A stretch of DNA of 37,272 nucleotides from Candidatus Woesearchaeota archaeon. Lineage in GTDB: Archaea; Nanobdellota; Nanobdellia; SCGC-AAA011-G17; GW2011-AR18. Under the pieces are notes generated by a model. The model was not told the origin of the DNA. It ran no database searches and saw nothing but the letters and a program-made list of their open reading frames with translations. A program made the position numbers and the translations under genes. The stretch spans positions 12,320 to 49,591 of the forward strand of contig CAYXPX010000001.1 of assembly GCA_964467335.1 (NCBI GenBank), given 5' to 3'. Of this stretch, positions 1,273 to 33,138 are shown piece by piece; the stretch's first letter is position 1, and each line of letters begins with the position of its first letter.

Positions 1273-1431
1273 ACAAAAGTAGTGGTGGTCTAAATATTTA
1301 AATTTTGTTATATGCAGATCTTCAGAATTTAACCAATATACGGAGGTTATATTTTTAGGAATATGCGCTTCAGTCCTGCACATCAGGAGGTTATAGAAAC
1401 TTATTTAAACTTCTAATAAGCTGTCAATTAT

Positions 1432-1896
1432 ATGAGAAAGGCAGCATTACTGATAATTTTTCTTCTATTTGTTTTTATAATTCCTTTGGTATTAGCGCAC
1501 GGCGAGGATCAATTTGACGAAGCAAAAGAATTGATAGATTCTAAGGCTAGCTGTAATGATCTTAGTGACGAACAGCTGGAAATGATTGGAGATTATTTAA
1601 TGGAGCAGATGCATCCAGGGGAACAGCATAAAAATATGGATGATGCATTGGGCGGAGAAGGTTCTGAAAATTTAATGCAGACACATATTAGGATGGCCAG
1701 AATGATGTACTGCGGAGAGATGAGTTCCATGATGAACATGCCGATGATGGGTGCAGGAATGATGCAGCAGAATAATTTCAGCGCAAGTTTAACAGAAAGC
1801 AGATTTTTCTGGCTGGTTATGGGATTTATAGTTGCATTATTAATCTTCATGATAATAAAGTTTCTAAAAAAGCCTAAAATAAAAAGTGCAAAGTAA
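1432..1896 (+). CDS. Met-rich secreted or membrane-anchored protein
   Basis: N-terminal hydrophobic signal/anchor (AALLIIFLLFVFIIPLVLA) and a C-terminal TM helix (FFWLVMGFIVALLIFMII) followed by a basic tail. The central part has Met/His clusters (MEQMHPGEQHKNM, MARMMYCGEMSSMMNMPMMGAGMM). Confidence 0.5.
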   Translation: MRKAALLIIFLLFVFIIPLVLAHGEDQFDEAKELIDSKASCNDLSDEQLEMIGDYLMEQMHPGEQHKNMDDALGGEGSENLMQTHIRMARMMYCGEMSSMMNMPMMGAGMMQQNNFSASLTESRFFWLVMGFIVALLIFMIIKFLKKPKIKSAK

Positions 1897-11687: not shown

Positions 11688-12443
11688 TTAAATCAGCCTT
11701 CTTGCCTCATCAATGGGATTAAATCCCTTGATCTGCGATTTTATATTTAAGGTCTTGTCTGTGGCTGTGAGCAGTATGCTGTCAAGAAGTTCATTAAGGT
11801 GGCCGTGAATAAGCCTCTCCCTGGCCTCTTTCTCAATGTCTTTTTTATATTCAGGATTTCTTTCAGGATTAAATAGTTCATCATATCCTGCAACATTTGT
11901 CAGGCTGCTTTCCATTGTCGCTACCAGGCGCCTCTGTTTTTCAACATTGTCTATTATGTTATGGATTTCTTTTTTATTGATCTTTTCATTAACTTTCTTA
12001 AGGGCTTCAGCTACCGGCGCATAATAATGGTCTTCAAGGATTGCAAGCAGATTTTTTAGTGCAAGCCCGTGCATTGCTATTAATTTGATCTTTCTTCCGA
12101 TTGCTTCAATGATATTCTCAATCTGCTTTTTATCCTTTATATGCGGCTGGAATTTGTCAAGGTCCTGAAGAAGGCTTCTTACATAATTTGCTATTGCTTC
12201 AGCCTCGCCCTGCATTTTCTCAAAACCAAGATATTCATAGTTTATTTTTACAGAATCAAGAATATCCAGCAGTTCGCTCTTTTCTGCAGCAGATTTAAGG
12301 TCAGCGCCGCCATTAATTTCACCAGACAACTCTTCTTTTGTTTTCAGGGGTTTTTCTCCAAGAACTTCCTTCACTTTTTCAGGCGAAATTTTTTCATTTG
12401 CTCTAAATAACTTTTTTATTTTGTCAAAAAAAACCATATACAT
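11688..12443 (-). CDS. hypothetical helical protein
   Basis: 251-aa ORF rich in Lys/Glu, predicted to be helical. No motif recognised. Confidence 0.35.
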   Translation of the reverse strand: MYMVFFDKIKKLFRANEKISPEKVKEVLGEKPLKTKEELSGEINGGADLKSAAEKSELLDILDSVKINYEYLGFEKMQGEAEAIANYVRSLLQDLDKFQPHIKDKKQIENIIEAIGRKIKLIAMHGLALKNLLAILEDHYYAPVAEALKKVNEKINKKEIHNIIDNVEKQRRLVATMESSLTNVAGYDELFNPERNPEYKKDIEKEARERLIHGHLNELLDSILLTATDKTLNIKSQIKGFNPIDEARRLI

Positions 12444-19863: not shown

Positions 19864-20631
19864 TTATAAGCTTTCTGTTTCAAAATCCAGCTTTATCTCA
19901 GTGCTGTAATATGTAGCGCCGCCTGTAAATCTTATCGTGCATATGAATAATCTTGTTTTTTCAGGAACACCGTTGATTTCAAGGTAATATAATGCAGTAT
20001 TATTGGGAAAGTAATTTCCCTTAAGCACAACCTTGTTTTCATCACCCTCGAAATAGTCCTTCATGGAAATATTGTTGTAAACATCCTTTTCATTTTTCTC
20101 ATCATAATAAATAACATTAGAATCTATCCGCCTGCATGTAAAGGAAGAAGACAAACTGCTTAATGGGAGCTCGCCGATGTTTTCCATCTGTGATTTTAGT
20201 ATGCTGCTTCCTGTTACAATAAAATTATCCTCGTTTAAAGTGCATCTTCCCTCGCAGCTGAATTCAGACAGCGTTAGAACGCCAGCGCAGGTTCTTGGGC
20301 AGTCTAAAGGACAGACCGTCATATGGGTTTCATCATTGCATCTCTCTGAAAAATCGCAAAAGCCGTCGCCGCAGCATGTTTCAAGTCTTTTATACTCGCA
20401 TTTTCCAGTTGCCTCATTAAAAACATCATCTGTGCAATCATTGTTGTCATCACACGAGGGAATCTCAAAAGCCTCTTCGTCGTCAGCATTCTCTTTAAGT
20501 GAATCATCAGAAACATTTTCAGTGGCATTGCCAACATCAGCATCTGATATGCTGATTTCTTCAGAAGGACTTGCACAGGCTGTAAAAAAAATTGCAAGGC
20601 ATAAAAATAAATAAAATAAAACTTTTGGCAT
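19864..20631 (-). CDS. Cys-rich secreted lipoprotein-like protein
   Basis: Signal peptide with a lipobox-like FTAC, then an acidic linker. A Cys module follows (CDDNNDCTDD...CEY...CCGDGFCDFSERCNDETHMTVCPLDCPRTC), then a beta-rich C-terminal domain. The ATG shares one base with the rps12 stop (TAATG). Confidence 0.6.
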   Translation of the reverse strand: MPKVLFYLFLCLAIFFTACASPSEEISISDADVGNATENVSDDSLKENADDEEAFEIPSCDDNNDCTDDVFNEATGKCEYKRLETCCGDGFCDFSERCNDETHMTVCPLDCPRTCAGVLTLSEFSCEGRCTLNEDNFIVTGSSILKSQMENIGELPLSSLSSSFTCRRIDSNVIYYDEKNEKDVYNNISMKDYFEGDENKVVLKGNYFPNNTALYYLEINGVPEKTRLFICTIRFTGGATYYSTEIKLDFETESL

Positions 20632-21108: not shown

Positions 21109-23565
21109 TTAATCTCTGTATCTAAGTCTTACAGCAACTGTATATCCTGTACCGCCGCCACCGCCGTCTCCGCCTCCATCACCACTATGACCTCCTCCGC
21201 TATCTCCGCCAGAATATCCTCCCTCTCCTCCGCTATAACCTCCGCCTCCAAATCCTTCACCAGAATATCCTCCGCTCCCTTCGCCCCCGCCACTAAAGCG
21301 GTAACTTCCCTCAGAACCTCCTCCGCTAAAGTAAGATTCATATCCTTCAGGAGGGCTAAAACCTTCAGGTACTGAAAATCCCTCTCCATATGGTCCGCCA
21401 ACATATCCCCCGCTAGTGTAGGCTTCATAAGCTCCGCTGTCTATCTCTCCCCCATGCTCAAAGTAAGCCTCATAACGCCCCTCCCTATCCTCTTCACTTA
21501 AAGAAAATACCTCGCCAAATATTCTCTGTCTGTCCTCTTCAGAATATGAACTTCTGAATTCTTCTCTATGGCTGTCAAATCTCCCAAGCATCCCGCTCAC
21601 AGAACTTTCATAGGTTCCAGCGCGCTCTGGATGTGCAGTCAAATAATCTTTTTCAGGACCGTCAGGCAATGAATCAACTCCCCCGGCAAGATAAGCCTCG
21701 TAAGCCTCTCTAACACTCTCAACATGTGCAGCAACATCAGGAACAACAAAGAACTCAGGCCTCCTGTTGAGTACATCAGGATTATTCTCGACAAAATAAG
21801 CAGCCTCCTTTCCAAATCCAAACTCAGCATGCTCAATCAAAAACTTCTCATATTTTTTAGTCATCTCAGGATTAATATTCTCAAGTCTCTTTGCCTCTAC
21901 GCTGAGGTCATCTGCCAGATTTGGGTTATCATCAAGATAAGAAGCATAATCTTTTTGATAAGTTACTAAATAAGTTTCACGGAAGTTCTTAAAATCTTCA
22001 GGATTTTCAGAATCTCTCATTGCATCTATAAATTCATGAGGAATATTCTCAACAGGAGAAAATGTTAATCCTGTGTCTATGAATCTCTCAAAATTATAAT
22101 AGTCAATAGCATCAGGAACATCATTGCCGTTTGCATCATCATCATCCTCGTTCAATTCTCCGTCGCCGTCAATGTCATCGTCATCATAATCATAAATTCC
22201 ATCATCATCAGTATCAATAAAATCACCATAGTTTTCAGCAACTTCATCCCTGTGTTCATAGATATCATCTAAATTGCCTGAAAATGTCAGGCCATCTTCA
22301 ACTCCATCTCCATTTATGTCATCATCCTCTCCATTCAGAATTCCATCGCCATCAAAATCACCGCCGGCAAAATCATCAAACTCCTCAATATCATCTGTGC
22401 CGCTTCCGTCAGCATCGCTATCTTCCCAGTCAACTATGCCATCATCATCAAAGTCATTGTCAGGCAGCGTAACAGCAAAAATCTCAAGTCTCTGCCCGTC
22501 ATATTCCTCCTGGCTTATTAATCCATCGCCGTCGCTGTCAGTAAATCCTAAATCTGTTAATTCAGTCTGTCTTTCTTCACTGTTTATATCAGCCTGAATT
22601 GGGGCAGGAAATATGCTGGGCCTCTGTTCATCATATTCATCAGCATCAATAAGACCATCGCCGTTTGTATCAGTAAATCCTATTTCCCTTAGTTGGTTTT
22701 GACGGTCAACACTATCTATTATTTCTTCTATATCATCGTCAAAAAGTCCATCGCCATTCCAGTCATTCTGGATATCGCTTTCGCTCATAGGCTGACCATT
22801 CCAGTCATACAATCCGTCGCCGTCAAGATCAAAGTCATCCTCATTAACAACTCCATCACCATTAAAGTCAGCATCCTCCATAGTCATTCTGCCGTCTCCA
22901 TTCAGGTCATCATTGTCTCCATCCCCGTCAGGGTCAGTATCAATATCATCAGGAATCCCATCACCATCAAAATCTCCAGGACCAAGGTTTGTCTCAAAAT
23001 CATCTGAAAAGTCTCCTGTATTTTGTTCCAGTTCACTAAGGTGCTGCTCCATAACATCCAAATGGCTAAGCAGTAGGGTATTGCCGCTTTCCTCAGCAGC
23101 GCTTCTCATTTGTTCTAAAATTGCTCCAAGTTCATCAATCTCAACATTAAGCTCAAGCAGGTAATTATCAGCAGTTTCCTCAACACCCTCTGAAAGCTGG
23201 TCATCCAGCTCATCAACATAGAATGAAATTGTGTTGCTTGTATATAATCTTCTGATTCTTAATGCAGCGTCCATCACAGCAGGATCTCTTGATTCAATTG
23301 CAATATTAACCAGGGCATTAACATCATCACTAAGTTTATTATCAGATTCCCTGACACCAGAAAATGATTCCTTGAGGTTATCTCTTTCAATAGCACTCAA
23401 TGCAGGAGCAACATTATCTGCTCTTAATCCTGACAATGAAGAAACACTCTGTGCTTCCTCCTGGGTTTCAGCCTCTTCACTAACCTGCTGCTGCTGACAG
23501 GAAGCCAAAATTAAAATCAAAACTAGAAAAAATACCCAAAATACGCCATATCTTTTTTTAAACAT
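21109..23565 (-). CDS. large hyper-acidic secreted lipoprotein-like protein with DxDxDG calcium-binding-type repeats and a Gly/Ser/Tyr-rich tail
   Basis: The start is placed at ATG 23565 ([23 protein letters not shown], with lipobox-like LASC), with a TATA box 23-24 nt upstream. Many DFDGDG, DPDGDG, NGDG and DIDGDG loops are present. There are two FTD(T/S)(N/D)GDGLI..EEYD units. The C-terminus is made of GGYSGG-type repeats. Confidence 0.65.
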
Positions 23566-23588
23566 AGAGTATTTCAAGAAAGCAAATA

Positions 23589-24044: not shown

Positions 24045-24286
24045 TATTCAATGCCGATTACTGAAATAGAAAATGGTTTTTTGCATAAAACCCCAAAATC
24101 CTTGCTGTTCTCGCCTGCAAATTCTGCCTCAACATTGAACTTTTTGCATAAATCAGAAATATGTTCTTTCATGTGTGAATTTGAGGCAACGTAAACCTTC
24201 TTTATTTTCTGATTTTTTATTTTCTTGACTGTTCTCTCAAGCCCGAATACAAGTTTTTTATTTTTAATGTCATTTTCAAGGCTCAT
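24044..24286 (-). CDS. rpl30e: 50S ribosomal protein L30e (short)
   Basis: 80 aa with an L7Ae/L30e-like layout (KLVFGLERTVKKIKNQKIKKVYVASN...LCKKPFSISVIGI). It sits in the conserved position between rpoA'' and nusA and overlaps both neighbours by a few nt. Confidence 0.7.
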   Translation of the reverse strand: MSLENDIKNKKLVFGLERTVKKIKNQKIKKVYVASNSHMKEHISDLCKKFNVEAEFAGENSKDFGVLCKKPFSISVIGIE

Positions 24287-25401
24287 TTCTGCACCTTCAT
24301 TTTTGCTGTAAGCCCCGGAAGTCCTGTGCCAAGGGGAACAGGCTGGTTTATTATAACATTTTCAACAACGCTTCTCAGGTTGTCAACCTCTCCTATAAGG
24401 CTTGCATTCACAATGTGTTTTATCGGAGTTTCAAAGCTTGCTCTTGCAATCACGCTTTCCTTCTCGCCTGTAATGCCTGTTCTTGTAACTCCCTTTATCT
24501 CTCCGCCTCTTGTCATCACATCAGCAAGAAGCATTATGTGCCTTATGTCAACGTCAATGCCCTGGTCTTTTAATTCTTTGGAAGATTCCTCTATGACTGA
24601 TTCTCTTGCAGCCTCAATTCCAAGAACCTCTCCTATTTCAAAAATATTGTTGGTTGTTATTCTGGAAGTATCAGCCTCCTCAAGAGCAAGGGCGTCCTCT
24701 AAATTGCTGCCTGCACAGTGTATGACATAGCTGCCGTCATCTTCTTTTACAGGCAGAACATGCGTAATTCCCTTTAGGCCCATTATGTGTGTATTCTTTG
24801 CCTTTTCCTTAATTTTGTAAATTTCTGAGATTGGCAGCTCTTTCTCTTTTGGCTTTATAATAAATCCGTTGTCAAGATCCTTGATCTCAACGCCCTTCAT
24901 TGCCTCTTTGAGTGTATCGTAAATAAACTTTTGTTTAAGTTCAAGCTCTCTTGTCTTTTTTCTGTCAAGTATAATCTCTACGCTGCCCTTTGCAACGTTT
25001 ATGGAAATTTCCTGTGCGATGTCGCTGAGTTTTGTCTCTTTTATTTTCATGGCAACAAGCCTTACATCTTCGGTTGTTTTTGAAAATTTTGGTTTTATCG
25101 GTATCTTCATTTTTGGGGTGCTCGGCCTTTTTCTTGCATCAAAAATTTCTATGAGTCTTGGCAGTCCTACAGTGACCTGCATCTCTGCAACGCCTGCAAA
25201 ATGGAATACATTAAGTGTCAGCTGAGTGGCAGGCTCTCCAAAACTTTCAGCAGTGACAATTCCAATGGATTCCCCGGGATCAATCTTTGCATTCTCATAT
25301 TTTTCATCAACTCTCTTTTCAATTTCCTTTTTGTCCCTGTCAGAGATATTGTATTTCTTGGCATACTTTTCAATTTTTTCAGATAGATGGAATGGCAGCA
25401 T
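24283..25401 (-). CDS. rpoA2: DNA-directed RNA polymerase subunit A''
   Basis: Trigger-loop region GESIGIVTAESFGEPATQLTLNVFHFAGVAEMQVTVGLPRLIEIFDARK. The C-terminus ends with INQPVPLGTG. Confidence 0.92.
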   Translation of the reverse strand: MLPFHLSEKIEKYAKKYNISDRDKKEIEKRVDEKYENAKIDPGESIGIVTAESFGEPATQLTLNVFHFAGVAEMQVTVGLPRLIEIFDARKRPSTPKMKIPIKPKFSKTTEDVRLVAMKIKETKLSDIAQEISINVAKGSVEIILDRKKTRELELKQKFIYDTLKEAMKGVEIKDLDNGFIIKPKEKELPISEIYKIKEKAKNTHIMGLKGITHVLPVKEDDGSYVIHCAGSNLEDALALEEADTSRITTNNIFEIGEVLGIEAARESVIEESSKELKDQGIDVDIRHIMLLADVMTRGGEIKGVTRTGITGEKESVIARASFETPIKHIVNASLIGEVDNLRSVVENVIINQPVPLGTGLPGLTAKMKVQK

Positions 25402-25402
25402 C

Positions 25403-27673
25403 TTAGCTTAGCACCTCTCTTATTATTCTTGCAACATTAATCTTCCCGCCCTCTGTTTTTGAAACATCAAGGCCATCCTCGCCGTATAAAAATTGGATGA
25501 TATTCTGCTCAGCATCTCTCACAGTAGAATCATATTCCACTTTTATGTCCTGCAGTGCGCTTGACAGTCTCCTGTAAAGATATCCTGATTTTGGAGTTCT
25601 TAAGGCAGTGTCCATAAGTGAGTCTCTTCCTGTCATTGCGTGCATAAAATATTCCTCAGGTGAAAGCCCCTCTTTATATCCCCTTTTTATAAAACCCTTT
25701 GCCCTTGGGCTCAGGTCATTTTTTTGAAATATGCACAGTGTCCTGCCCCTGTATCCTATGTCAATCCTTTTTCCCCTTAATGCCTGTAAGCCGACGCATG
25801 CAGCCATCATGGAAAGATTCATGTTGCTCCCCTTTGCTCCTGAATTTGCCATGAGAATTGTGGAATTTTCCTCAAGGTCTGCTTCAGCAATAATTTCTCC
25901 AGTACGCTGCCTTGCCTTGTTCAGGACTTCCATGATTTTAATTTCAAGCGTATCCATCGTGCTTAGCCCCGGAAGGGCATCAAGTTGTTTTGATTTGTAT
26001 TGTTCAATAAGCTGGCTTACTCTTTTTTCAGCATTGTATATTGTCTCTTTGCATTTGTCAGATACTTCTTTCGGAAGGTCTGTATCGCTTATGGAAGTTG
26101 TAAATCCATGCCTGAGCAGCACTCCTATTCCAAGTCTGAAAATCTTTCCAAGTATATCAAGACCGACATCAGCACCGTACTTTGCATACACAGCTCTTAT
26201 CAAGTCTCCCTTGTCTTTTCCAATTGTTGCCTTGTCAATCACTCCTTCAGTTAAAAATCCATTCTTTACAACAACAGCCTCCTTTGATTTTGAATGGCCT
26301 ATGAAACTAAAGTCATCAGGCAGCAAAGCGCTGAAAATCTCCCTTCCGTCAGCTGTTTTTTTGAACTTTTCAAATCTTTCAGGCCTGAAAACTCCAACGC
26401 TGTGAAGAAGCTGTATCGCATCAGCCCTGTCCATCTTAATGTCCTTTGTTAGAATGTAATTGCCAGTAACAGCATCGTCGCTGCATCCAACAACATGGGT
26501 TTCATCAGTTATTTTTTTCTTTTTTCCGTCAGGCCTTATAACATAGTTGCTGCCTGGATATTTTTTTGGGCCGTTTTCCACAAATTTTTTTAGTCTCTTA
26601 AGATTCCATTCAGTAACCCTTTCAGGTGTAGTAAGCTCCATTGCAACAACAAGCGGGATGCCGACCTCATTAAGTTCTATTTTTGAGTCAGGACTTATGA
26701 CAGTTCTTGCAGCGTAATTAACTCTTTTGCCGGCAAGGTTGTGCCTGAATCTTCCCTCCTTGCTTTTTATCCTTTCAGTAAGTGTTCTTAATGCCTGCCC
26801 GCTCCTGTGCCTTGCAGGAGGAATTTGGCTTACCTCATTGTCAAAATAAGTTGTAATATGATACTGCAGTAAATCCCAAAGATCTTCTATAATAATCTCA
26901 GGTGCTCCTGCATTTATGTTTTCAAAAAGTCTCTGGTTTATTCTTACAATATCTCCAAGCTTGTGTGTCAGATCATCTTCACTCCTTTCGCCTGTTTCCA
27001 GCGTGATGCTCGGTCTTATTGTAACAGGAGGCACTGGAAGTATTGTTAAAACACCCCACTCAGGTCTTGCATATTCAGGATTCAGTCCGAGGAACGCAAT
27101 ATCACTATCGCTTACTCTCTCAAGTCTTGTCCTTATATCAATAAGGTTCAATCTCTTGTCGCCTTCAAGAAATGTAGTCGGCCTCTCAAGTTTTATATTT
27201 TCCTGCTTTGCACTGCAGTGCTGGCACTTTTTTATATTCTTAAGTGAATTTCTAATGCTTTTGGCCTGCTTTTGTGTAGATACTTCAACCTCAGGATTTT
27301 CTCCTGCATTTTCCTCTTCTACAGTTAGTCTTGCCTTGCTGTCAGCTAGAAGCTTTCCGCATTCTCTGCATGTGCATCTTAAAACTCCGAGTATTATATC
27401 AGCGTATTTAATATGTATCACAGGTCTTGCCAGATCAAAATATCCAAAATGCCCCATGCAGTCCCTCAAATTTCCTCCGCATGTTTTGCATCTTAAGCCG
27501 GGATCAATGACTCCAAGTCTCACATCCATCAGCCCGCCGTCAACAGGATAGCCCTCTCTGTCATAAAGTTCAGGTGTAACTATTTTCGCAACAGCCATCT
27601 TCTTTATCATTGTAGGTGAAAACATCCCGAAAATTATGCTGGTTATTTTTTTGTATACGTATGTTTCTGCCAT
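25403..27673 (-). CDS. rpoA1: DNA-directed RNA polymerase subunit A' (atypically short; active-site segment not found)
   Basis: Zn-ribbon/clamp motifs (CKTCGGNLRDCMGHFGY), LPVPPVTIRPS, EDDLTHKL, GKRVNYAARTVISPD, and funnel/cleft motifs (SGAKGS, MTGRDSLMDTALRTPKSGYLYRRL). The start is placed at ATG 27673. The NADFDGDEMN region is absent (see findings). Confidence 0.85.
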   Translation of the reverse strand: MAETYVYKKITSIIFGMFSPTMIKKMAVAKIVTPELYDREGYPVDGGLMDVRLGVIDPGLRCKTCGGNLRDCMGHFGYFDLARPVIHIKYADIILGVLRCTCRECGKLLADSKARLTVEEENAGENPEVEVSTQKQAKSIRNSLKNIKKCQHCSAKQENIKLERPTTFLEGDKRLNLIDIRTRLERVSDSDIAFLGLNPEYARPEWGVLTILPVPPVTIRPSITLETGERSEDDLTHKLGDIVRINQRLFENINAGAPEIIIEDLWDLLQYHITTYFDNEVSQIPPARHRSGQALRTLTERIKSKEGRFRHNLAGKRVNYAARTVISPDSKIELNEVGIPLVVAMELTTPERVTEWNLKRLKKFVENGPKKYPGSNYVIRPDGKKKKITDETHVVGCSDDAVTGNYILTKDIKMDRADAIQLLHSVGVFRPERFEKFKKTADGREIFSALLPDDFSFIGHSKSKEAVVVKNGFLTEGVIDKATIGKDKGDLIRAVYAKYGADVGLDILGKIFRLGIGVLLRHGFTTSISDTDLPKEVSDKCKETIYNAEKRVSQLIEQYKSKQLDALPGLSTMDTLEIKIMEVLNKARQRTGEIIAEADLEENSTILMANSGAKGSNMNLSMMAACVGLQALRGKRIDIGYRGRTLCIFQKNDLSPRAKGFIKRGYKEGLSPEEYFMHAMTGRDSLMDTALRTPKSGYLYRRLSSALQDIKVEYDSTVRDAEQNIIQFLYGEDGLDVSKTEGGKINVARIIREVLS

Positions 27674-27675
27674 TT

Positions 27676-28104
27676 TCAAACTCTTGCATAACCTCCGGCT
27701 GTATTTGGTCTGATTGTAACGATCTTGTGTGCTTCTGTGCCGCTGAATATTACTCTGCCTGAATTAAATAAAACAGATTCGATTCCTGCCAGATCTTCAA
27801 TAAGGCTCTGAGATAGAGAACTTAAAATTCTGTTGGCTAGTTCATCCTCAGTTGGAGTTTTTCTTTTGATTTTATCAGCAAATTTTAAAAAAGAAAAAAC
27901 ATCATCATGAGCTTCAAAAAGCCTTTCAGTTCCATAGATATAAGGCACAGAAAATGTAATGGTTTCCTCTCCGCGTGAAAGAGCAAGACCGTCAGCAGGA
28001 GGAAAAATAATAACCCCATAACTTGTTTCATGGCTGTCTTTCTCATCTAAGACAATATATGGAAATCCTCCAGCATCTCTTAGTTTATATTTAGGTAAAT
28101 TCAT
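27676..28104 (-). CDS. hypothetical 142-aa protein embedded in the RNA polymerase operon
   Basis: The ATG at 28104 lies 1 nt after the rpoB' stop and 8 nt downstream of AAGGAG. Its TGA stop lies 2 nt before the rpoA' ATG. No family recognised. The ORF-track start at 28146 would overlap rpoB'. Confidence 0.55.
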   Translation of the reverse strand: MNLPKYKLRDAGGFPYIVLDEKDSHETSYGVIIFPPADGLALSRGEETITFSVPYIYGTERLFEAHDDVFSFLKFADKIKRKTPTEDELANRILSSLSQSLIEDLAGIESVLFNSGRVIFSGTEAHKIVTIRPNTAGGYARV

Positions 28105-28105
28105 T

Positions 28106-29908
28106 TTAATATCTCCTTCCCAGCACAAGTTTTGGATATAATCCAAGGGCCTTAAGCTCGTCTAGCAGTAGTTTGAATGCATAACTCATCTCAACAGCGC
28201 TTATCTTTGTGTTTCCTCCGCATTTTGTGCAGTGTTCCCTGTCTTTGTATGAATCATAAATTCCAAGAAGGCCGCAGCTTTCGCATACATAAACAAGAGT
28301 TCTGTCAGAGTCAAACCTTTCCTTCAATAATAAGGATGCACCACGCGAAACAAAGCAGTCCTTCTCCATCTCTCCAAGACTTAATCCTCCTCCCTGCGCC
28401 CTTCCCTCTATAGGTTGTCTTGTAAGCAGTTGTATCTTCCCGGTTGCCCTTGCATGCAGTTTATTGGCAACCATATGTTTGAGCCTCAGGTAATACATAT
28501 TCCCAACATAAATCTTTGCCTTTAATTCTCTCCCGTCAATGCCGCTGTAGACAGTCTCAAATCCATTGTCCCTGAATCCAAGTCCAAGCAGCATTTTTCT
28601 TAGCTCACTTTCAGGAACAGAATCAAAAGTTGTTCCGTCAATATATTCCCCGGATAAAGCGCCTGCCTTGCCTGCAATCACTTCTATAAGATGTGATATT
28701 GTCATTCTTGATGGAATTCCGTGCGGGCTGAATATAATATCAGGAGTTATTCCAGAGGCAGTAAAAGGCATGTCAGCAGGATTTACAAGCATGCCAACAA
28801 CTCCCTTTTGTCCGTGGCGCGAAGCAAACTTGTCTCCGATCTCAGGTATTCTCTGCTGCCTGAGTTTAACACGGACAATTCTGTTCCCCTCTTCATTCTC
28901 AGTAATTAAAGTCATGTCAACAATCCCATTTTCTCCATGGGTAAGCGCGACAGAGCTTTCTCTTTTTACATTTGTGGCAACATTAAATTCTTCAAACTCC
29001 CCCAAAAATCTTGGAGGGCTTACCTTTCCGATTAAGACATCATCCTCTTTTACTTTTGAGCTTGTAAAAACAATTCCGTCCTCCTCTAGCATGCGGTAAT
29101 CCTTTTCAGACTTGTAGCCTTTGACATCTTTGTCAGGTATGCATATCTCGTCAACAAGTCCTCCCTGGTATCTTACCTCTTCTGTGTTAAAAGGTTTGAA
29201 GTAAGTTGATCTTCCAAAACCTCTCTGTACACTGCCGAGATTTATTATGATTGCATCCTCCATGTTGTATCCTTCATAGCTCATCAGGGCAATCACAACA
29301 TTCTGTCCTGACGGATGTTTGTCCCAGTTGACAACAGGATGCATAAAAGTGTTTGTAACAGGCCTCTGCGGATAATATAAAACATTTACATCAGTGTCAA
29401 TTCTCATAAGGTAATTTGCTGCATAAACTCCAAGAGCCTGCTTTTGTATTTTGTTCCCTCTTATAAGTCTGGAGCTTCCGCCAAAGTTTGAATAAGGTAT
29501 CAGCGAAGTGCATAGTCCAAGAATGACTATTGGTGATATTTCAAGGTGGGTATGTTCTTTTGTTAATTCTTTTTCATCAAGTGCAATATAGCAGTTCTCC
29601 TCCTCTCCAGCATCAATGTATTCCATAATCCCGTCTTTCACAAGCTTTTCTATCTTAAGCGTGCCGTCCTCTATCCCCTTAATGTGCGCATCAGTCAAAA
29701 GAGGTTTGCTGTTTTCAACAACTATCAAAGGTCTTCTTGCCCTTCCCTTTGTGGTATCAACATAAAATTCATCATACTCCTCATCGTAAAAAAAATTAAC
29801 ATCCTGGTTTAATGAGCCCTTTCTTCTCTCATTCCTCAGCTGTTTGATAAATTCTTTTGAATTTTCTATAGTTCCTATGAATTTTTCATTTAAAAATACG
29901 TCTGTCAT
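28106..29908 (-). CDS. rpoB1: DNA-directed RNA polymerase subunit B' (C-terminal half of B)
   Basis: GDKFASRHGQKGVVG, DMPFTASGITPDIIFSPHGIPSRMTISHLIE, and the C-terminal Zn ribbon CESCG...CTKCGG. Confidence 0.92.
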   Translation of the reverse strand: MTDVFLNEKFIGTIENSKEFIKQLRNERRKGSLNQDVNFFYDEEYDEFYVDTTKGRARRPLIVVENSKPLLTDAHIKGIEDGTLKIEKLVKDGIMEYIDAGEEENCYIALDEKELTKEHTHLEISPIVILGLCTSLIPYSNFGGSSRLIRGNKIQKQALGVYAANYLMRIDTDVNVLYYPQRPVTNTFMHPVVNWDKHPSGQNVVIALMSYEGYNMEDAIIINLGSVQRGFGRSTYFKPFNTEEVRYQGGLVDEICIPDKDVKGYKSEKDYRMLEEDGIVFTSSKVKEDDVLIGKVSPPRFLGEFEEFNVATNVKRESSVALTHGENGIVDMTLITENEEGNRIVRVKLRQQRIPEIGDKFASRHGQKGVVGMLVNPADMPFTASGITPDIIFSPHGIPSRMTISHLIEVIAGKAGALSGEYIDGTTFDSVPESELRKMLLGLGFRDNGFETVYSGIDGRELKAKIYVGNMYYLRLKHMVANKLHARATGKIQLLTRQPIEGRAQGGGLSLGEMEKDCFVSRGASLLLKERFDSDRTLVYVCESCGLLGIYDSYKDREHCTKCGGNTKISAVEMSYAFKLLLDELKALGLYPKLVLGRRY

Positions 29909-29909
29909 T

Positions 29910-32903
29910 TTAAACTTTAGTTTTCACCCCGAGATTATCAAGTGTTTTTTTTACCTTTTCTTCCTGCGAGTCTCCCTTTGATGCAACACAAAGCAGTGCT
30001 ATATTTTTTCTTAAGCCTATTGGTGTTCCCTCAGGAGTCTCAATAGGGCAATTGTGGGTTATAAACCCATTAGCAATTAATGTATGAGTATTTTCTTTTG
30101 TGGTAAGGTCTCTGACGTCATCTATTTCCTGTGCGCTCTTTTGTATAATTCTCTCCCATACTGCCCCAGATTCCCCTAATTTCGAAGATTCCAGCCATTT
30201 AGTATACGATTGCAATAAATTTTGTGTATTTCGGGTTTTCTCATATATTTTTTGGTTAAATAACCACCCATTGATTACCCTATAATTTATTCCAAACCTT
30301 TCTGATATTCTTTTAGGTGTTAACCCATCTGAATATAATTCTTTGACATCATTCTTTAATTTTTTTCTTTGGTTTATCACCATTTCTCTTATTCTCAGCC
30401 ACTCGCCAATATAATTCGAGTTCATTTCCTTTTGTTTGCAGTATCTGTAACCTATAACATTTAGGGTTTTCTTTATATTATTGTAATCATTTGCAAATAT
30501 AATTTTGCATTTAAGCATAATTGCCTTGTCTTTTCTTATATAATCTTCAGCTAGTTCTATATTTTTTATTTTAACACCAAGATACATGAAAAGTTTTTTT
30601 ATATCTTCAGCAAATCTCTGTATATTATTTTTTAACTCTTTTCTCTTATGAAAAATAAAGTTCCCTAAATTTAATTTTTCTCCAGACAATCTTTCATTTC
30701 TTATTGATATCCTTGGCTTGGAACCATCACCGCCAAGCAAAGCAGCTAAAAATTCCCTTTTAACTGATAGGCTAGACTTAAATAACCATTTAGGAACATA
30801 CAACTCAGTGTCTGTTTTTCTGCCAACAGGAGCACCAGCACAAACCATTAAAGAATGTAACGCCCCGCCCTTGCTCAACATAAAAGTTCTATAATTCACC
30901 TCTCTATCAGACAATTTTATTTTAGTATCCTTTTGTATTATTTTGGACGGCTCAAACCCCAATAATCTTATATCATTAGCCACAGCCTCAGCATCATTCC
31001 TGCTGCCGCAATAAAATTCCAGGTTATACTTTCCACAATGCCCATCTGAAAATAAGTGGCCCATTAACCTTGCAATTATCTCAATTTTATAGTTGTTTGT
31101 AGTTAAGGGTAGCAATTCATTTGAATGCAGTTCTTTTATATCATGTTTAAATCTTTTTTGGTAATTTTTTTCAATATCGCTAACACTAACTATCATTTCT
31201 CCTAAATTTTCATTTGGTAATTCTGGAGTATTAATTTTATCAAGAGTAGGATAAACAGCAACATTATCTCCGACATTAAGTTTAGCAGCATCAATCCAGC
31301 CATGTTTTGTATAAAAAGGATGGTCCTGCGTGGCAAGTATCTCTCTTCCGCTTTCAGAAACCAATTTATAAACAGTTTTGCCCATTAATTTGGGATTTGA
31401 AGTATAATATTTGGATATACTTGATTTTATTAGTGCCTTATCTTTAATATTATATGTCAAAATCTTATGATGATTCCAGCAATTTTGCAGATTTTCTAGA
31501 GTTTTCGTTGAATATCCGTCTGCCAGCAAAACATTTGTATCCTTGCTCAAGCATAATCTTCCCCAATGCGTCGGATGCAGCGCCCTTGCCTCAAAATTTT
31601 CCTGCGTGCTTGTCAGCAGGGAAACAACCCTCTGGAGATGTGAATAAGTTGCAAGTATATTTGTTCTGTCAATATTTTGGCTGACTCCCTTTCTTCCGCC
31701 TGTCCATGTGCCTGTTGCAAGTGAACTCTTTATATTTGATGTAAGAAGCTCATCTCTTATTATTATTTTGATGCTCTGGAATTTTCCTCTCTTTACAAGC
31801 CTCTGGAAGTTATACAGTATATCCTGCACAAGGCTTCTAAGGTTTGTTCTTATAAGGTCCTCAAGTAAATCCCCTGCAAGCTTGAGTCTTTTGTTGGCAT
31901 AATGATCCTTGTCAGGCAGTGGAAGTCCGTCGCTGCTTGCCTGCAGAAATTTTCTTATCATTTTGCATAAGTTATATGCTTTTACAATCCTGTCTTTTGG
32001 CGAAGTTCCAACATGCGGCAAAAGATATCTGTCAAGCTGCTCTTTTGTTCTCTCATATTTTGCTTCCTTTGGCTGTGAAATTCCTGCCCTTTTTGAAAGA
32101 TATTCAAGTGCATCATCCTCTGTCTTTATGCCGGCTGAATCATATAAATTTATAAAAACAGAGTCATAGTTTTTTTCGGGGCAGATCATCTTTACTATCT
32201 CCTGATCCTTGGTCATTCCAAGTGCTTTTAGGATAGGGAAAAGTGGTATTCTCTTAAATCTTGTAAATGTTAAGTAAAAAATTCCATCCTTCATCTGCTC
32301 AATAGTATGGGGTATTCTGTAGCTTCCCATCTCTGAAAAAACCCTTGCAACATACTCGCTTGGTCCTATCTCTTTTTTTTCTATAAAAATGCGGTTTGAT
32401 GCAAGATCTTCAACAGTGACAAGAACTCTCTCATTTCCGTTTATCATAAAATATCCGCCAGGATCATCAGGATCCTCGCCTTTTGAAATAAGTTCCTCTC
32501 TCTTAAGTCCGTGAAGATGGCAGTATTTTGACCTGAGCATTATCGGAAGCTTTCCAATCATTGTAACAAAATTTTCTCTCTGTATGTCATCAACATATGC
32601 GCTGACCTCAAGAAACATCGGAGCAGAGTATGTCAGCATCCTGAGCCTTGCCTCTGATGGAAACACATCTCTTTTGCTGCCGTCAGCTTCAATTATTGTG
32701 GGTTTTTCTATCCATATTTTTTTTAATTTAATAACAAAGCTCTCAACTTCCTGGGGAATAATTGTAGGGGAAATATCTCCGACTTCATCCACAAGAATCT
32801 GAAGTCTTCTGTCAACAAAATCATTAAAGCTTTGTATATTCGCCTCTACAAAAGGATTTTCCTTAAAATATTGTTTGATAAGATTATGATATCCCTTAAC
32901 CAT
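29910..32903 (-). CDS. rpoB2: DNA-directed RNA polymerase subunit B'' (N-terminal half of B) interrupted by an intein
   Basis: 997 aa. Extein motifs GYFMINGNERVLV, HYANKRLKLAGDLL and HPTHWGRL / CPIETPEGTPIGLRKN flank a 501-aa insertion. The extein sums to 496 aa, a normal B'' size. Confidence 0.9.
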   Translation of the reverse strand: MVKGYHNLIKQYFKENPFVEANIQSFNDFVDRRLQILVDEVGDISPTIIPQEVESFVIKLKKIWIEKPTIIEADGSKRDVFPSEARLRMLTYSAPMFLEVSAYVDDIQRENFVTMIGKLPIMLRSKYCHLHGLKREELISKGEDPDDPGGYFMINGNERVLVTVEDLASNRIFIEKKEIGPSEYVARVFSEMGSYRIPHTIEQMKDGIFYLTFTRFKRIPLFPILKALGMTKDQEIVKMICPEKNYDSVFINLYDSAGIKTEDDALEYLSKRAGISQPKEAKYERTKEQLDRYLLPHVGTSPKDRIVKAYNLCKMIRKFLQASSDGLPLPDKDHYANKRLKLAGDLLEDLIRTNLRSLVQDILYNFQRLVKRGKFQSIKIIIRDELLTSNIKSSLATGTWTGGRKGVSQNIDRTNILATYSHLQRVVSLLTSTQENFEARALHPTHWGRLCLSKDTNVLLADGYSTKTLENLQNCWNHHKILTYNIKDKALIKSSISKYYTSNPKLMGKTVYKLVSESGREILATQDHPFYTKHGWIDAAKLNVGDNVAVYPTLDKINTPELPNENLGEMIVSVSDIEKNYQKRFKHDIKELHSNELLPLTTNNYKIEIIARLMGHLFSDGHCGKYNLEFYCGSRNDAEAVANDIRLLGFEPSKIIQKDTKIKLSDREVNYRTFMLSKGGALHSLMVCAGAPVGRKTDTELYVPKWLFKSSLSVKREFLAALLGGDGSKPRISIRNERLSGEKLNLGNFIFHKRKELKNNIQRFAEDIKKLFMYLGVKIKNIELAEDYIRKDKAIMLKCKIIFANDYNNIKKTLNVIGYRYCKQKEMNSNYIGEWLRIREMVINQRKKLKNDVKELYSDGLTPKRISERFGINYRVINGWLFNQKIYEKTRNTQNLLQSYTKWLESSKLGESGAVWERIIQKSAQEIDDVRDLTTKENTHTLIANGFITHNCPIETPEGTPIGLRKNIALLCVASKGDSQEEKVKKTLDNLGVKTKV
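30051..31553 (-). mobile_element. intein with double-motif LAGLIDADG homing endonuclease domain in RpoB''
   Basis: Begins with Cys (CLSKDTNVLLADG) right after HWGRL. Ends with THN followed by the +1 Cys (CPIETPEG). LAGLIDADG-type motifs are LMGHLFSDGH and FLAALLGGDGS. There is an HTH-like segment (LTPKRISERFGINYRVINGWL). Confidence 0.85.
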
Positions 32904-33138
32904 CTACCACCAGCCTGTAATAATCAGTTTCCTTTGCTGTATGACTTTTTCTTTTTATTAATATAACATCCCCTGCCTTCACTCCAAGATCTTTTATTGC
33001 AGGATCGCTTATTTTTATCATCGGAAGCTGCTTTTCAGAGATATTGAAGGTTTGTAACAGCTGTTCCTTCTGGTCTTTGGTAAGCTTTATGTGCTGGGGT
33101 ACCAGAAAATGCTGGTTAATTTGAAGTTGTTCAACCAT
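32896..33138 (-). CDS. rpoH: DNA-directed RNA polymerase subunit H
   Basis: 80 aa. HFLVPQHIKLTKDQKEQLL...QLPMIKISDPAIKDLGVKAGDVILIKRKSHTAKETDYYRLVV follows the Rpb5 C-domain pattern. It overlaps the rpoB'' start by 8 nt. Confidence 0.88.
   Translation of the reverse strand: MVEQLQINQHFLVPQHIKLTKDQKEQLLQTFNISEKQLPMIKISDPAIKDLGVKAGDVILIKRKSHTAKETDYYRLVVDG

Follow-up and report, generated by a model that had tools for sequence, protein, structure and literature searches.

What does a small gene of no recognisable family do between rpoB' and rpoA', the two largest RNA polymerase (RNAP) genes of an archaeon? The question is raised by a 37,272-nucleotide (nt) stretch of contig CAYXPX010000001.1 (assembly GCA_964467335.1, contig positions 12,320 to 49,591) from a Candidatus Woesearchaeota archaeon, hereafter the window. 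It carries a canonical archaeal transcription/translation cluster on its minus strand, on which all gene coordinates and spacings below are read. An open reading frame (ORF) of 142 sense codons, ORF142, fits precisely between rpoB' and rpoA', and a first-pass annotation had taken it, from its position, for a candidate lineage-specific RNAP subunit or factor. Here, we show that ORF142 is a genuine protein-coding gene under purifying selection, that it is confined to one narrow lineage, and that the junction it occupies has repeatedly been held by unrelated ORFs. It is most likely a passenger of the operon rather than a polymerase subunit.

The alternative that ORF142 is non-coding sequence was checked and does not hold. 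A related Woesearchaeote carries an ortholog (P0002; 143 amino acids (aa), 78% identical), also between rpoB' and rpoA' and with the same 1-nt and 2-nt spacers on every contig examined. These contigs come from several different metagenome assemblies (ENA, JGI) and represent one near-identical population; eleven were read and eight places are shown (L001-L008, which come from groundwater samples). Two further protein variants were recovered (P0008 and P0009), and the reading frame is unbroken in every variant (P0001, P0002, P0008, and P0009). Between the window and L001, ORF142 has accumulated 37 synonymous and 36 non-synonymous changes (97.5 and 328.5 sites, respectively), which corresponds to a ratio of non-synonymous to synonymous substitution rates (dN/dS) of 0.22 (binomial P = 2e-7 versus neutrality). 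The codon-usage likelihood is highest in the annotated frame, and the first 57 residues at the N-terminus of the protein are invariant. An ORF finder extends ORF142 upstream to a TTG at 28146 (156 aa); since this extension is not open in the ortholog, the ATG at 28104 was taken as the start. The gene evolves about 7 times faster than rpoB' and rpoA'', with a dN of 0.118 compared to 0.017 for rpoB', 0.022 for rpoA'', 0.005 for rpoH, and 0 for S12, and its product has diverged by 22% while B' diverged by about 4%. Its GC content at third codon positions (GC3) is 0.21, compared to approximately 0.37 for rpoB' and rpoA', in a genome of 37% GC. The protein is cysteine-free, has an isoelectric point (pI) of 5.4 and contains no signal peptide or hydrophobic segment; it is predicted to be a soluble, mildly acidic α+β protein of approximately 16 kDa.

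The coordinates, the 1-nt and 2-nt spacers and the AAGGAG 8 nt upstream of the ORF142 start, as given by the first-pass annotation, were all confirmed (Table 1). A 1-nt spacer is also found at both the B''/B' and the A'/A'' junctions. In several insert-free relatives, the end of B' reads '...GGAAGGAAATATTAA-A-ATG(A')', and the 5' junction of the window reads '...AAGGAGATATTAA-A-ATG(ORF142)'. The start of ORF142 thus falls at the position of the A' start codon in the relatives. The same 'stop-N-ATG' geometry links B' straight to A' in the insert-free L012, L014, L024, and L054, and a GGAGG or GGAAGG in the B' 3' end of insert-free relatives stands just 5' of the A' ATG. The 3' junction of the window reads '...GGAGGTTATGCAAGAGTTTGA-AA-ATG(A')', and this arrangement of TGA, 2-nt spacer and ATG is identical in the ortholog. 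A GGAGG within the last codons of ORF142, also kept in L001, is a possible, if distant, ribosome-binding site for A', and a weaker AAGAG lies 7 nt 5' of the rpoA' ATG. With the shared strand, the short spacers, the upstream ribosome-binding motif, and a geometry identical in L001-L008, ORF142 has the features of a translationally coupled cistron, and these make its co-transcription and coupled translation with the polymerase cistrons almost certain. Of the earlier proposal that it is co-translated with the subunits, the packing therefore stands and is conserved in the ortholog; the coupling itself is deduced from that packing. ORF142 is also rich in T runs (9.3 per kb versus 1.3-2.3 per kb in the rpo genes). 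Its central T6-C-T6 tract, partly kept in the ortholog as T4-C-T6, resembles the archaeal oligo-T termination signal at consensus level only and may act between B' and A' as an internal signal for termination or attenuation. Scanning the window against Rfam and for tRNAs gave no matches.

No family could be assigned to ORF142, as the first-pass annotation had stated. Pfam-A gave none for the protein and its orthologs, even at E values up to 10, NCBIfam returned noise only, and PHROGs, PADLOC, and PDB sequence searches had no matches. There was no profile match to known archaeal RNAP subunits or factors (Rpo3-Rpo13, Spt4/5, TFE, TFS, TFB, TBP, and NusA). The Pfam search of the window recovered an intein in rpoB'', yet intein, homing-endonuclease (LAGLIDADG, HNH, GIY-YIG, and Hint), PIN, toxin-antitoxin, and defence signatures were all missing from ORF142 in Pfam, PADLOC, and PHROGs. 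A word-index search of 5.8e9 proteins returned only ORF142 itself and the P0002 cluster. An exhaustive HMMER profile search of 1.84e9 representative proteins returned its own cluster and four giant repeat proteins (Ig-like, Calx-beta-like, and coiled-coil), which were rejected as spurious upon reading because a short β-hairpin-like match had been summed over near-identical copies. Scans of GTDB genomes and IMG/VR viral contigs revealed no relative, and the literature search yielded no account of genes located between rpoB and rpoA in DPANN. No carrier of ORF142 was found beyond the window lineage and the relative with the 78%-identical ortholog; the gene is an orphan restricted to a single genus-level lineage of Woesearchaeota (DPANN).

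Profile and structure searches had been suggested by the first-pass annotation; they upheld the orphan status and provided no usable fold. Two AlphaFold2 (AF2) runs reached predicted local distance difference test (pLDDT) values of 52 and 37, and both low-confidence models have the same order of elements: four strands, three or four helices, and two strands. When the pLDDT 52 model was compared with the PDB by Foldseek, the best match had E = 0.57, a probability of 0.23 and a template modelling (TM) score of about 0.3; the top matches, all weak, were Spa15 and SycE (type III secretion chaperone/YbjN-like α+β fold). We also considered ORF142 as a partial paralog of the rpoB'' protrusion region. 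Residues 50-135 are collinear with rpoB'' residues 283-387 (24% identity over 94 columns, hhalign P = 0.04). The best pairwise BLASTP E value, 0.007, was picked post hoc, and against the B'' profile the real ORF142 sequences were no outliers among 3000 shuffles (P about 0.03-0.1). The similarity is not significant and the candidate was rejected.

To place the insertion in context, the B'-A' junction was surveyed with B' as the probe in two sets of 80 loci, one drawn from GTDB species representatives and the other from JGI metagenomes. Records that carry a title belong to Woesearchaeota, Nanoarchaeia, or unclassified archaea, with three exceptions titled 'uncultured Methanosarcinales archaeon'. 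Across the surveyed loci, the best B' identity to the window is 78%. Among the 157 loci with both genes, B' and A' are no more than 30 nt apart in 135, 31-200 nt apart in 19, and separated by an ORF-sized distance in three (L009, L060, and L142). The statement in the first-pass annotation that B' and A' normally adjoin is thus correct for this group, and the synteny survey it had called for revealed a usually tight junction with unrelated ORFs in four other lineages, the three named and L010, in which an ORF directly follows B'. Nine of the 31-200 nt loci, all from the GTDB set, were examined; in six of them A' has a K/E-rich N-terminal extension, and in the other three the spacer is short and non-coding. 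Lys/Glu-rich A' extensions of about 30-65 residues characterise one Woesearchaeal clade (L050, L065, L074, L080, L085, L088, and L142).

The ORFs of L009, L010, L060, and L142 showed no relationship to ORF142 or to each other by phmmer, Smith-Waterman shuffles, and hhalign. The junction has thus been repeatedly held by unrelated ORFs, at least five of them mutually unrelated within the group. All four were rejected as ORF142 homologs, all comparisons being non-significant. The best pair, ORF142 and the L009 protein P0007, shares 28% identity over 46 N-terminal aa (pairwise BLASTP E = 0.014); the shuffle P values of 0.02 for ORF142 and 0.17 for P0002 are not convincing, and hmmsearch gave E = 15 in a database of 7028 ORFs. 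The B' proteins of L009 and L010 are 88% identical, and their junction ORFs are unrelated. In a neighbour-joining B' tree, the window and L001 group with the insert-free L011, and L009 and L010 with the insert-free L014 and L024; L012 and L015 likewise have no insert at this junction. ORF142 is missing from L011 and also from L012, L014, L015, and L024, which are close relatives too, and a single origin of the junction ORFs would require three or four precise losses on this tree. Repeated capture and replacement is favoured because of these losses, and because the L009 and L010 ORFs, if orthologous, should remain recognisable at the rate of ORF142. For the window and L009 pair, a single fast-evolving resident gene is less likely but conceivable. 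L060 belongs to a distant clade with an insert-free sister, and the L060 and L142 inserts are clearly independent. The L060 receiver begins with ATG GCA GAA (MAE), the first three A' codons of the sister L054; A' restarts with ATG CCT GAA, and the receiver stop overlaps the A' start. The codon match points to insertion into the A' 5' end with a short duplication.

Small ORFs also occur at a second junction of the operon. The rpoH-B'' junction is compact in 127 of 128 loci and the B''-B' junction in 137 of 146. Five large B''-B' gaps were found. L019 has the same rpoB'' intein as the window, the L131 gap is of similar size, and the remaining three, in L010, L035, and L012, contain genuine small ORFs, with two copies in tandem in L012. 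These ORFs form an orphan family (the BB family) of 130-143 aa with motifs NGVWxY and LGDYRK and 31-54% identity among members; only five members exist in 5.8e9 proteins. The BB family has no detectable relationship to ORF142 (hhalign P = 0.45) and was rejected as a homolog as well. Apparent A'-A'' gaps of about 1.4-2 kb in nine loci, accompanied by many intermediate values, are unreliable estimates and were not used.

The first-pass annotation had further tied ORF142 to the neighbouring A', which lacks its catalytic barrel. This tie fails, as the ortholog adjoins a full-length A' of 856 aa that carries NADFDGD. The window A' (756 aa) lacks exactly 100 codons (300 nt, in frame), the catalytic NADFDGD loop included, and L001 holds these 100 residues between '...ITDETH' and 'VVGCSDD...'. 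The only feature flanking the deletion point is an ATG microhomology. Alignment of the window A' to Rpo1N of PDB 8cro leaves about 100 residues (roughly 399-499) unmatched, and the Pfam Rpb1_2 (Rpb1 domain 2) match ends at profile position 97 of 166. When the deletion was sought in another assembly, the only other cluster member was a C-terminal fragment that does not reach the deletion junction. When the missing segment was sought across the window by six-frame motif scan and tblastn, only Asp-rich repeats of an 822-aa lipoprotein matched. A motif scan of ORF142 confirmed the earlier statement that it contains no DFDGD motif, and it has neither tblastn similarity to the missing segment nor a Pfam Rpb1_2 match. 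The idea that ORF142 compensates for or carries the missing double-psi β-barrel segment draws on its place beside a truncated A' and on a comparable size (142 versus 100 aa); it is contradicted by the absence of motif and similarity, refuted by the ortholog alongside an intact A', and retains virtually no probability. The same ortholog makes ORF142 and the truncation independent: the presence of ORF142 is unrelated to the missing catalytic segment, and it is no substitute for the barrel. The truncation would be either a variant with its own in-frame deletion of 300 nt or a defect in the assembly of the window contig, and for practical purposes it should be treated as such and not as biology linked to ORF142.

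We consider ORF142 to be probably a captured, lineage-specific operon passenger at a permissive, strongly expressed junction. This reading rests on the narrow distribution, the fast evolution, the atypical GC3, the turnover at the site, and the lipoprotein genes embedded in the same cluster. Together with the lack of a match to any known RNAP subunit or factor profile, these results also weaken the RNAP role that the first-pass annotation had drawn from position, while its claim of lineage restriction stands. As an RNAP-associated protein (accessory subunit, assembly factor, or regulator), ORF142 would be produced in concert with B' and A' and would attach close to the clamp, at the meeting point of the B' C-terminus and the A' N-terminus. 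The exact operon slot with spacers kept in the ortholog, the purifying selection and a soluble product free of signal peptide or membrane segment are consistent with such a role, as is the second small orphan family at the B''-B' junction of the same subclade. The CheY-like receiver of L060 suggests that regulators can reside at the B'-A' junction, and Rpo8 and Rpo13, described in PMC3479171 as archaeal RNAP subunits of restricted phyletic distribution, provide a precedent. However, ORF142 occurs in only one genus-level lineage, and B'-tree neighbours with highly similar RNAP (L011 and others) are without it. Its evolutionary rate is about 7 times that of its would-be binding partners, its GC3 departs from the rpo genes, it matches no known subunit or factor profile, and close relatives hold unrelated ORFs at the same site. 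Because lipoprotein genes unrelated to the polymerase are packed equally tightly in the cluster, tight packing there implies no polymerase function. The results neither support nor refute an RNAP-associated role, which we regard as unlikely. Several points nevertheless weigh against a captured passenger. Purifying selection shows that the protein has some function, and a position between the two largest RNAP subunit genes with coupling spacers is the expectation for a stoichiometric partner. A fold-level link to a known RNAP factor is possible because AF2 failed. The clustering of small orphan ORFs at rpo-operon junctions of the window subclade could reflect a polymerase-related role instead of random capture, or it may reflect a lineage-specific propensity for insertions. 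Finally, neither a donor sequence nor a hallmark of mobile elements was found, and no flanking repeat exceeded about 5 nt; capture is therefore inferred rather than demonstrated.

In a bolder version of the polymerase role, ORF142 would be a stoichiometric, fast-evolving RNAP-bound protein peculiar to one Woesearchaeal genus, with P0007, the BB family, and the L060 receiver as analogs, and together they would form a rapidly turning-over accessory polymerase layer in episymbiotic archaea, for example regulators or guards against viral polymerase inhibitors; we consider this, examples included, quite unlikely. It also seems improbable that ORF142, P0007, and the L010 ORF are one old resident gene that the subclade acquired a single time and that then diverged past recognition and was lost several times, with no independent captures. 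The shared junction, the comparable sizes (123-147 aa), an identical 1-nt gap behind B' and the restriction to one subclade would suit it. So would the weak N-terminal resemblance of ORF142 to P0007 and a rate of ORF142 that would wipe out similarity at the relevant B' distances. That resemblance is non-significant, however, L009 and L010 carry unrelated ORFs at only about 12% B' divergence, and at least three or four independent precise losses would be needed (L011, L012, L015, and L014/L024). Lastly, ORF142 could be a functionless relic or de novo ORF, kept since its imprecise deletion would harm the essential flanking genes or their coupling. Its orphan status, low GC3, fast evolution, and the inability of AF2 to fold it would be explained, but a dN/dS far under neutrality, a frame intact in all recovered variants, a globular composition, and regular secondary structure predicted alike in two AF2 runs make a relic very improbable.

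ORF142 probably arrived by insertion at the rpoB'-rpoA' junction, at the A' 5' end. It would use the AAGGAG of the B' 3' end together with the 'stop-N-ATG' coupling geometry, and ribosomes would be passed to A' via the 'TGA-NN-ATG' at its own 3' end. The protein is thus predicted to be made from the RNAP mRNA, probably at a level similar to that of the large subunits. If ORF142 is a mere passenger, the locus would be a clean example of an essential coupled operon that absorbs foreign or new genes unbroken, in which the insert seizes the upstream ribosome-binding site and the stop-start geometry and a new stop-start precedes the displaced gene. If, instead, ORF142 binds the polymerase, it would be a new lineage-specific archaeal transcription component in a group without cultured representatives. 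The narrow lineage that carries ORF142 belongs to the tiny archaea of groundwater. For annotation, position in an RNAP operon alone does not identify a polymerase subunit in DPANN genomes.

Among known systems, Rpo8 (RpoG) and Rpo13 have been shown experimentally in the polymerase and are kept across whole orders or phyla; neither is known to be encoded between rpoB and rpoA. Like them, ORF142 is small and narrowly distributed beside an otherwise universally conserved enzyme. Unlike them, it is restricted to one genus-level lineage, and neither Pfam model matches it. ORFan genes in conserved operons share with ORF142 the lack of homologs, fast evolution, atypical GC3, expression from a strong operon, and patchy presence. 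What sets ORF142 apart from the usual ORFans is its site, a 1-nt junction between the two largest RNAP genes with at least five unrelated occupants. Selfish genes such as phage homing-endonuclease genes and toxin-antitoxin systems are likewise lodged between essential conserved genes and patchy, and in L010 a PIN-domain (VapC-like) toxin gene lies downstream of this very junction; ORF142, in contrast, has no nuclease, intein, toxin, or antitoxin signature and no partner gene. The BB family resembles it in setting, being orphan, fast-evolving, and tightly packed in the rpo operon of the same subclade, but it occupies the B''-B' junction and is unrelated in sequence.

Table 1. Features of the window and of related loci, with window positions on the minus strand.
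Feature	Locus	Coordinates	Strand	Basis or remarks
rpoH	Window	32896-33138	-	Transcription/translation cluster
rpoB''	Window	29910-32903	-	Transcription/translation cluster
rpoB'' intein	Window	30051-31553	-	501 aa; LAGLIDADG-type endonuclease motifs; at HWGRL/CP(I/V)ETPEG site
rpoB' (Rpo2C)	Window	28106-29908	-	600 aa; upstream neighbour of ORF142; Pfam Rpb2 domains 4-7
AAGGAG	Window	28113-28118	-	Shine-Dalgarno-like; within the final codons of rpoB' (GRRY)
rpoB' TAA; spacer base; ORF142 ATG	Window	28108-28106; 28105; 28104-28102	-	Sequence
ORF142 coding sequence	Window	27676-28104	-	142 aa plus TGA; ORF and sequence, ortholog, dN/dS
T6-C-T6 tract	Window	27887-27899	-	Mid-ORF142, sense strand
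GGAGG	Window	27692-27696	-	Within the C-terminal GGYARV codons of ORF142, 18 nt 5' of the rpoA' ATG
ORF142 TGA; 2-nt spacer; rpoA' ATG	Window	27678-27676; spacer; 27673-27671	-	Sequence; suited to termination-reinitiation
rpoA' (Rpo1N)	Window	25403-27673	-	756 aa; downstream neighbour of ORF142; Pfam, 8cro, L001 comparison
Deletion point in rpoA'	Window	Between 26495 and 26494	-	
rpoA''	Window	24283-25401	-	Transcription/translation cluster
822-aa lipoprotein gene	Window	21109-23577	-	Between the NusA-like gene and S12
255-aa Cys-rich lipoprotein gene	Window	19864-20631	-	Start overlaps S12 stop by 1 nt
B'-A' insert	L009			P0007, 147 aa
B'-A' insert	L060	3726-4157		Single-domain CheY-like receiver, 143 aa; Pfam Response_reg, E = 0.0024
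B'-A' insert	L142			131-aa ORF
ORF directly after B'	L010			123-aa orphan; 1-nt spacer after B'
Region after B', with the PIN-domain gene	L010	3636-4538		123-aa ORF, 58-62-aa ORF, PIN-domain (VapC-like) gene
BB family copy	L010	1399-1830		
BB family copy	L035	About 1306-1734		
BB family copies	L012	4177-4569 and 4571-4999		

The L010 contig stops after the PIN-domain gene, before any A'. This gene (Pfam E = 2e-16) has a GC content of 0.46 versus 0.33, and the region could be a mobile insertion or belong to a chimeric contig; the metagenome-assembled genome of L010 has a second rpoB' contig, L035. In the window, the cluster continues after rpoA'' with L30e, a NusA-like KH protein, the 822-aa lipoprotein gene, S12, the 255-aa lipoprotein gene, S7, and EF-2. 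The rpoB'' intein is not present in L001 (B'' of 496 aa), whereas L019 and L010 have it at the same site. The 822-aa lipoprotein has a pI of 4.05, DxDxDG-type repeats, and a Gly/Ser-rich tail. Both lipoprotein genes are lineage-specific and kept in L001.

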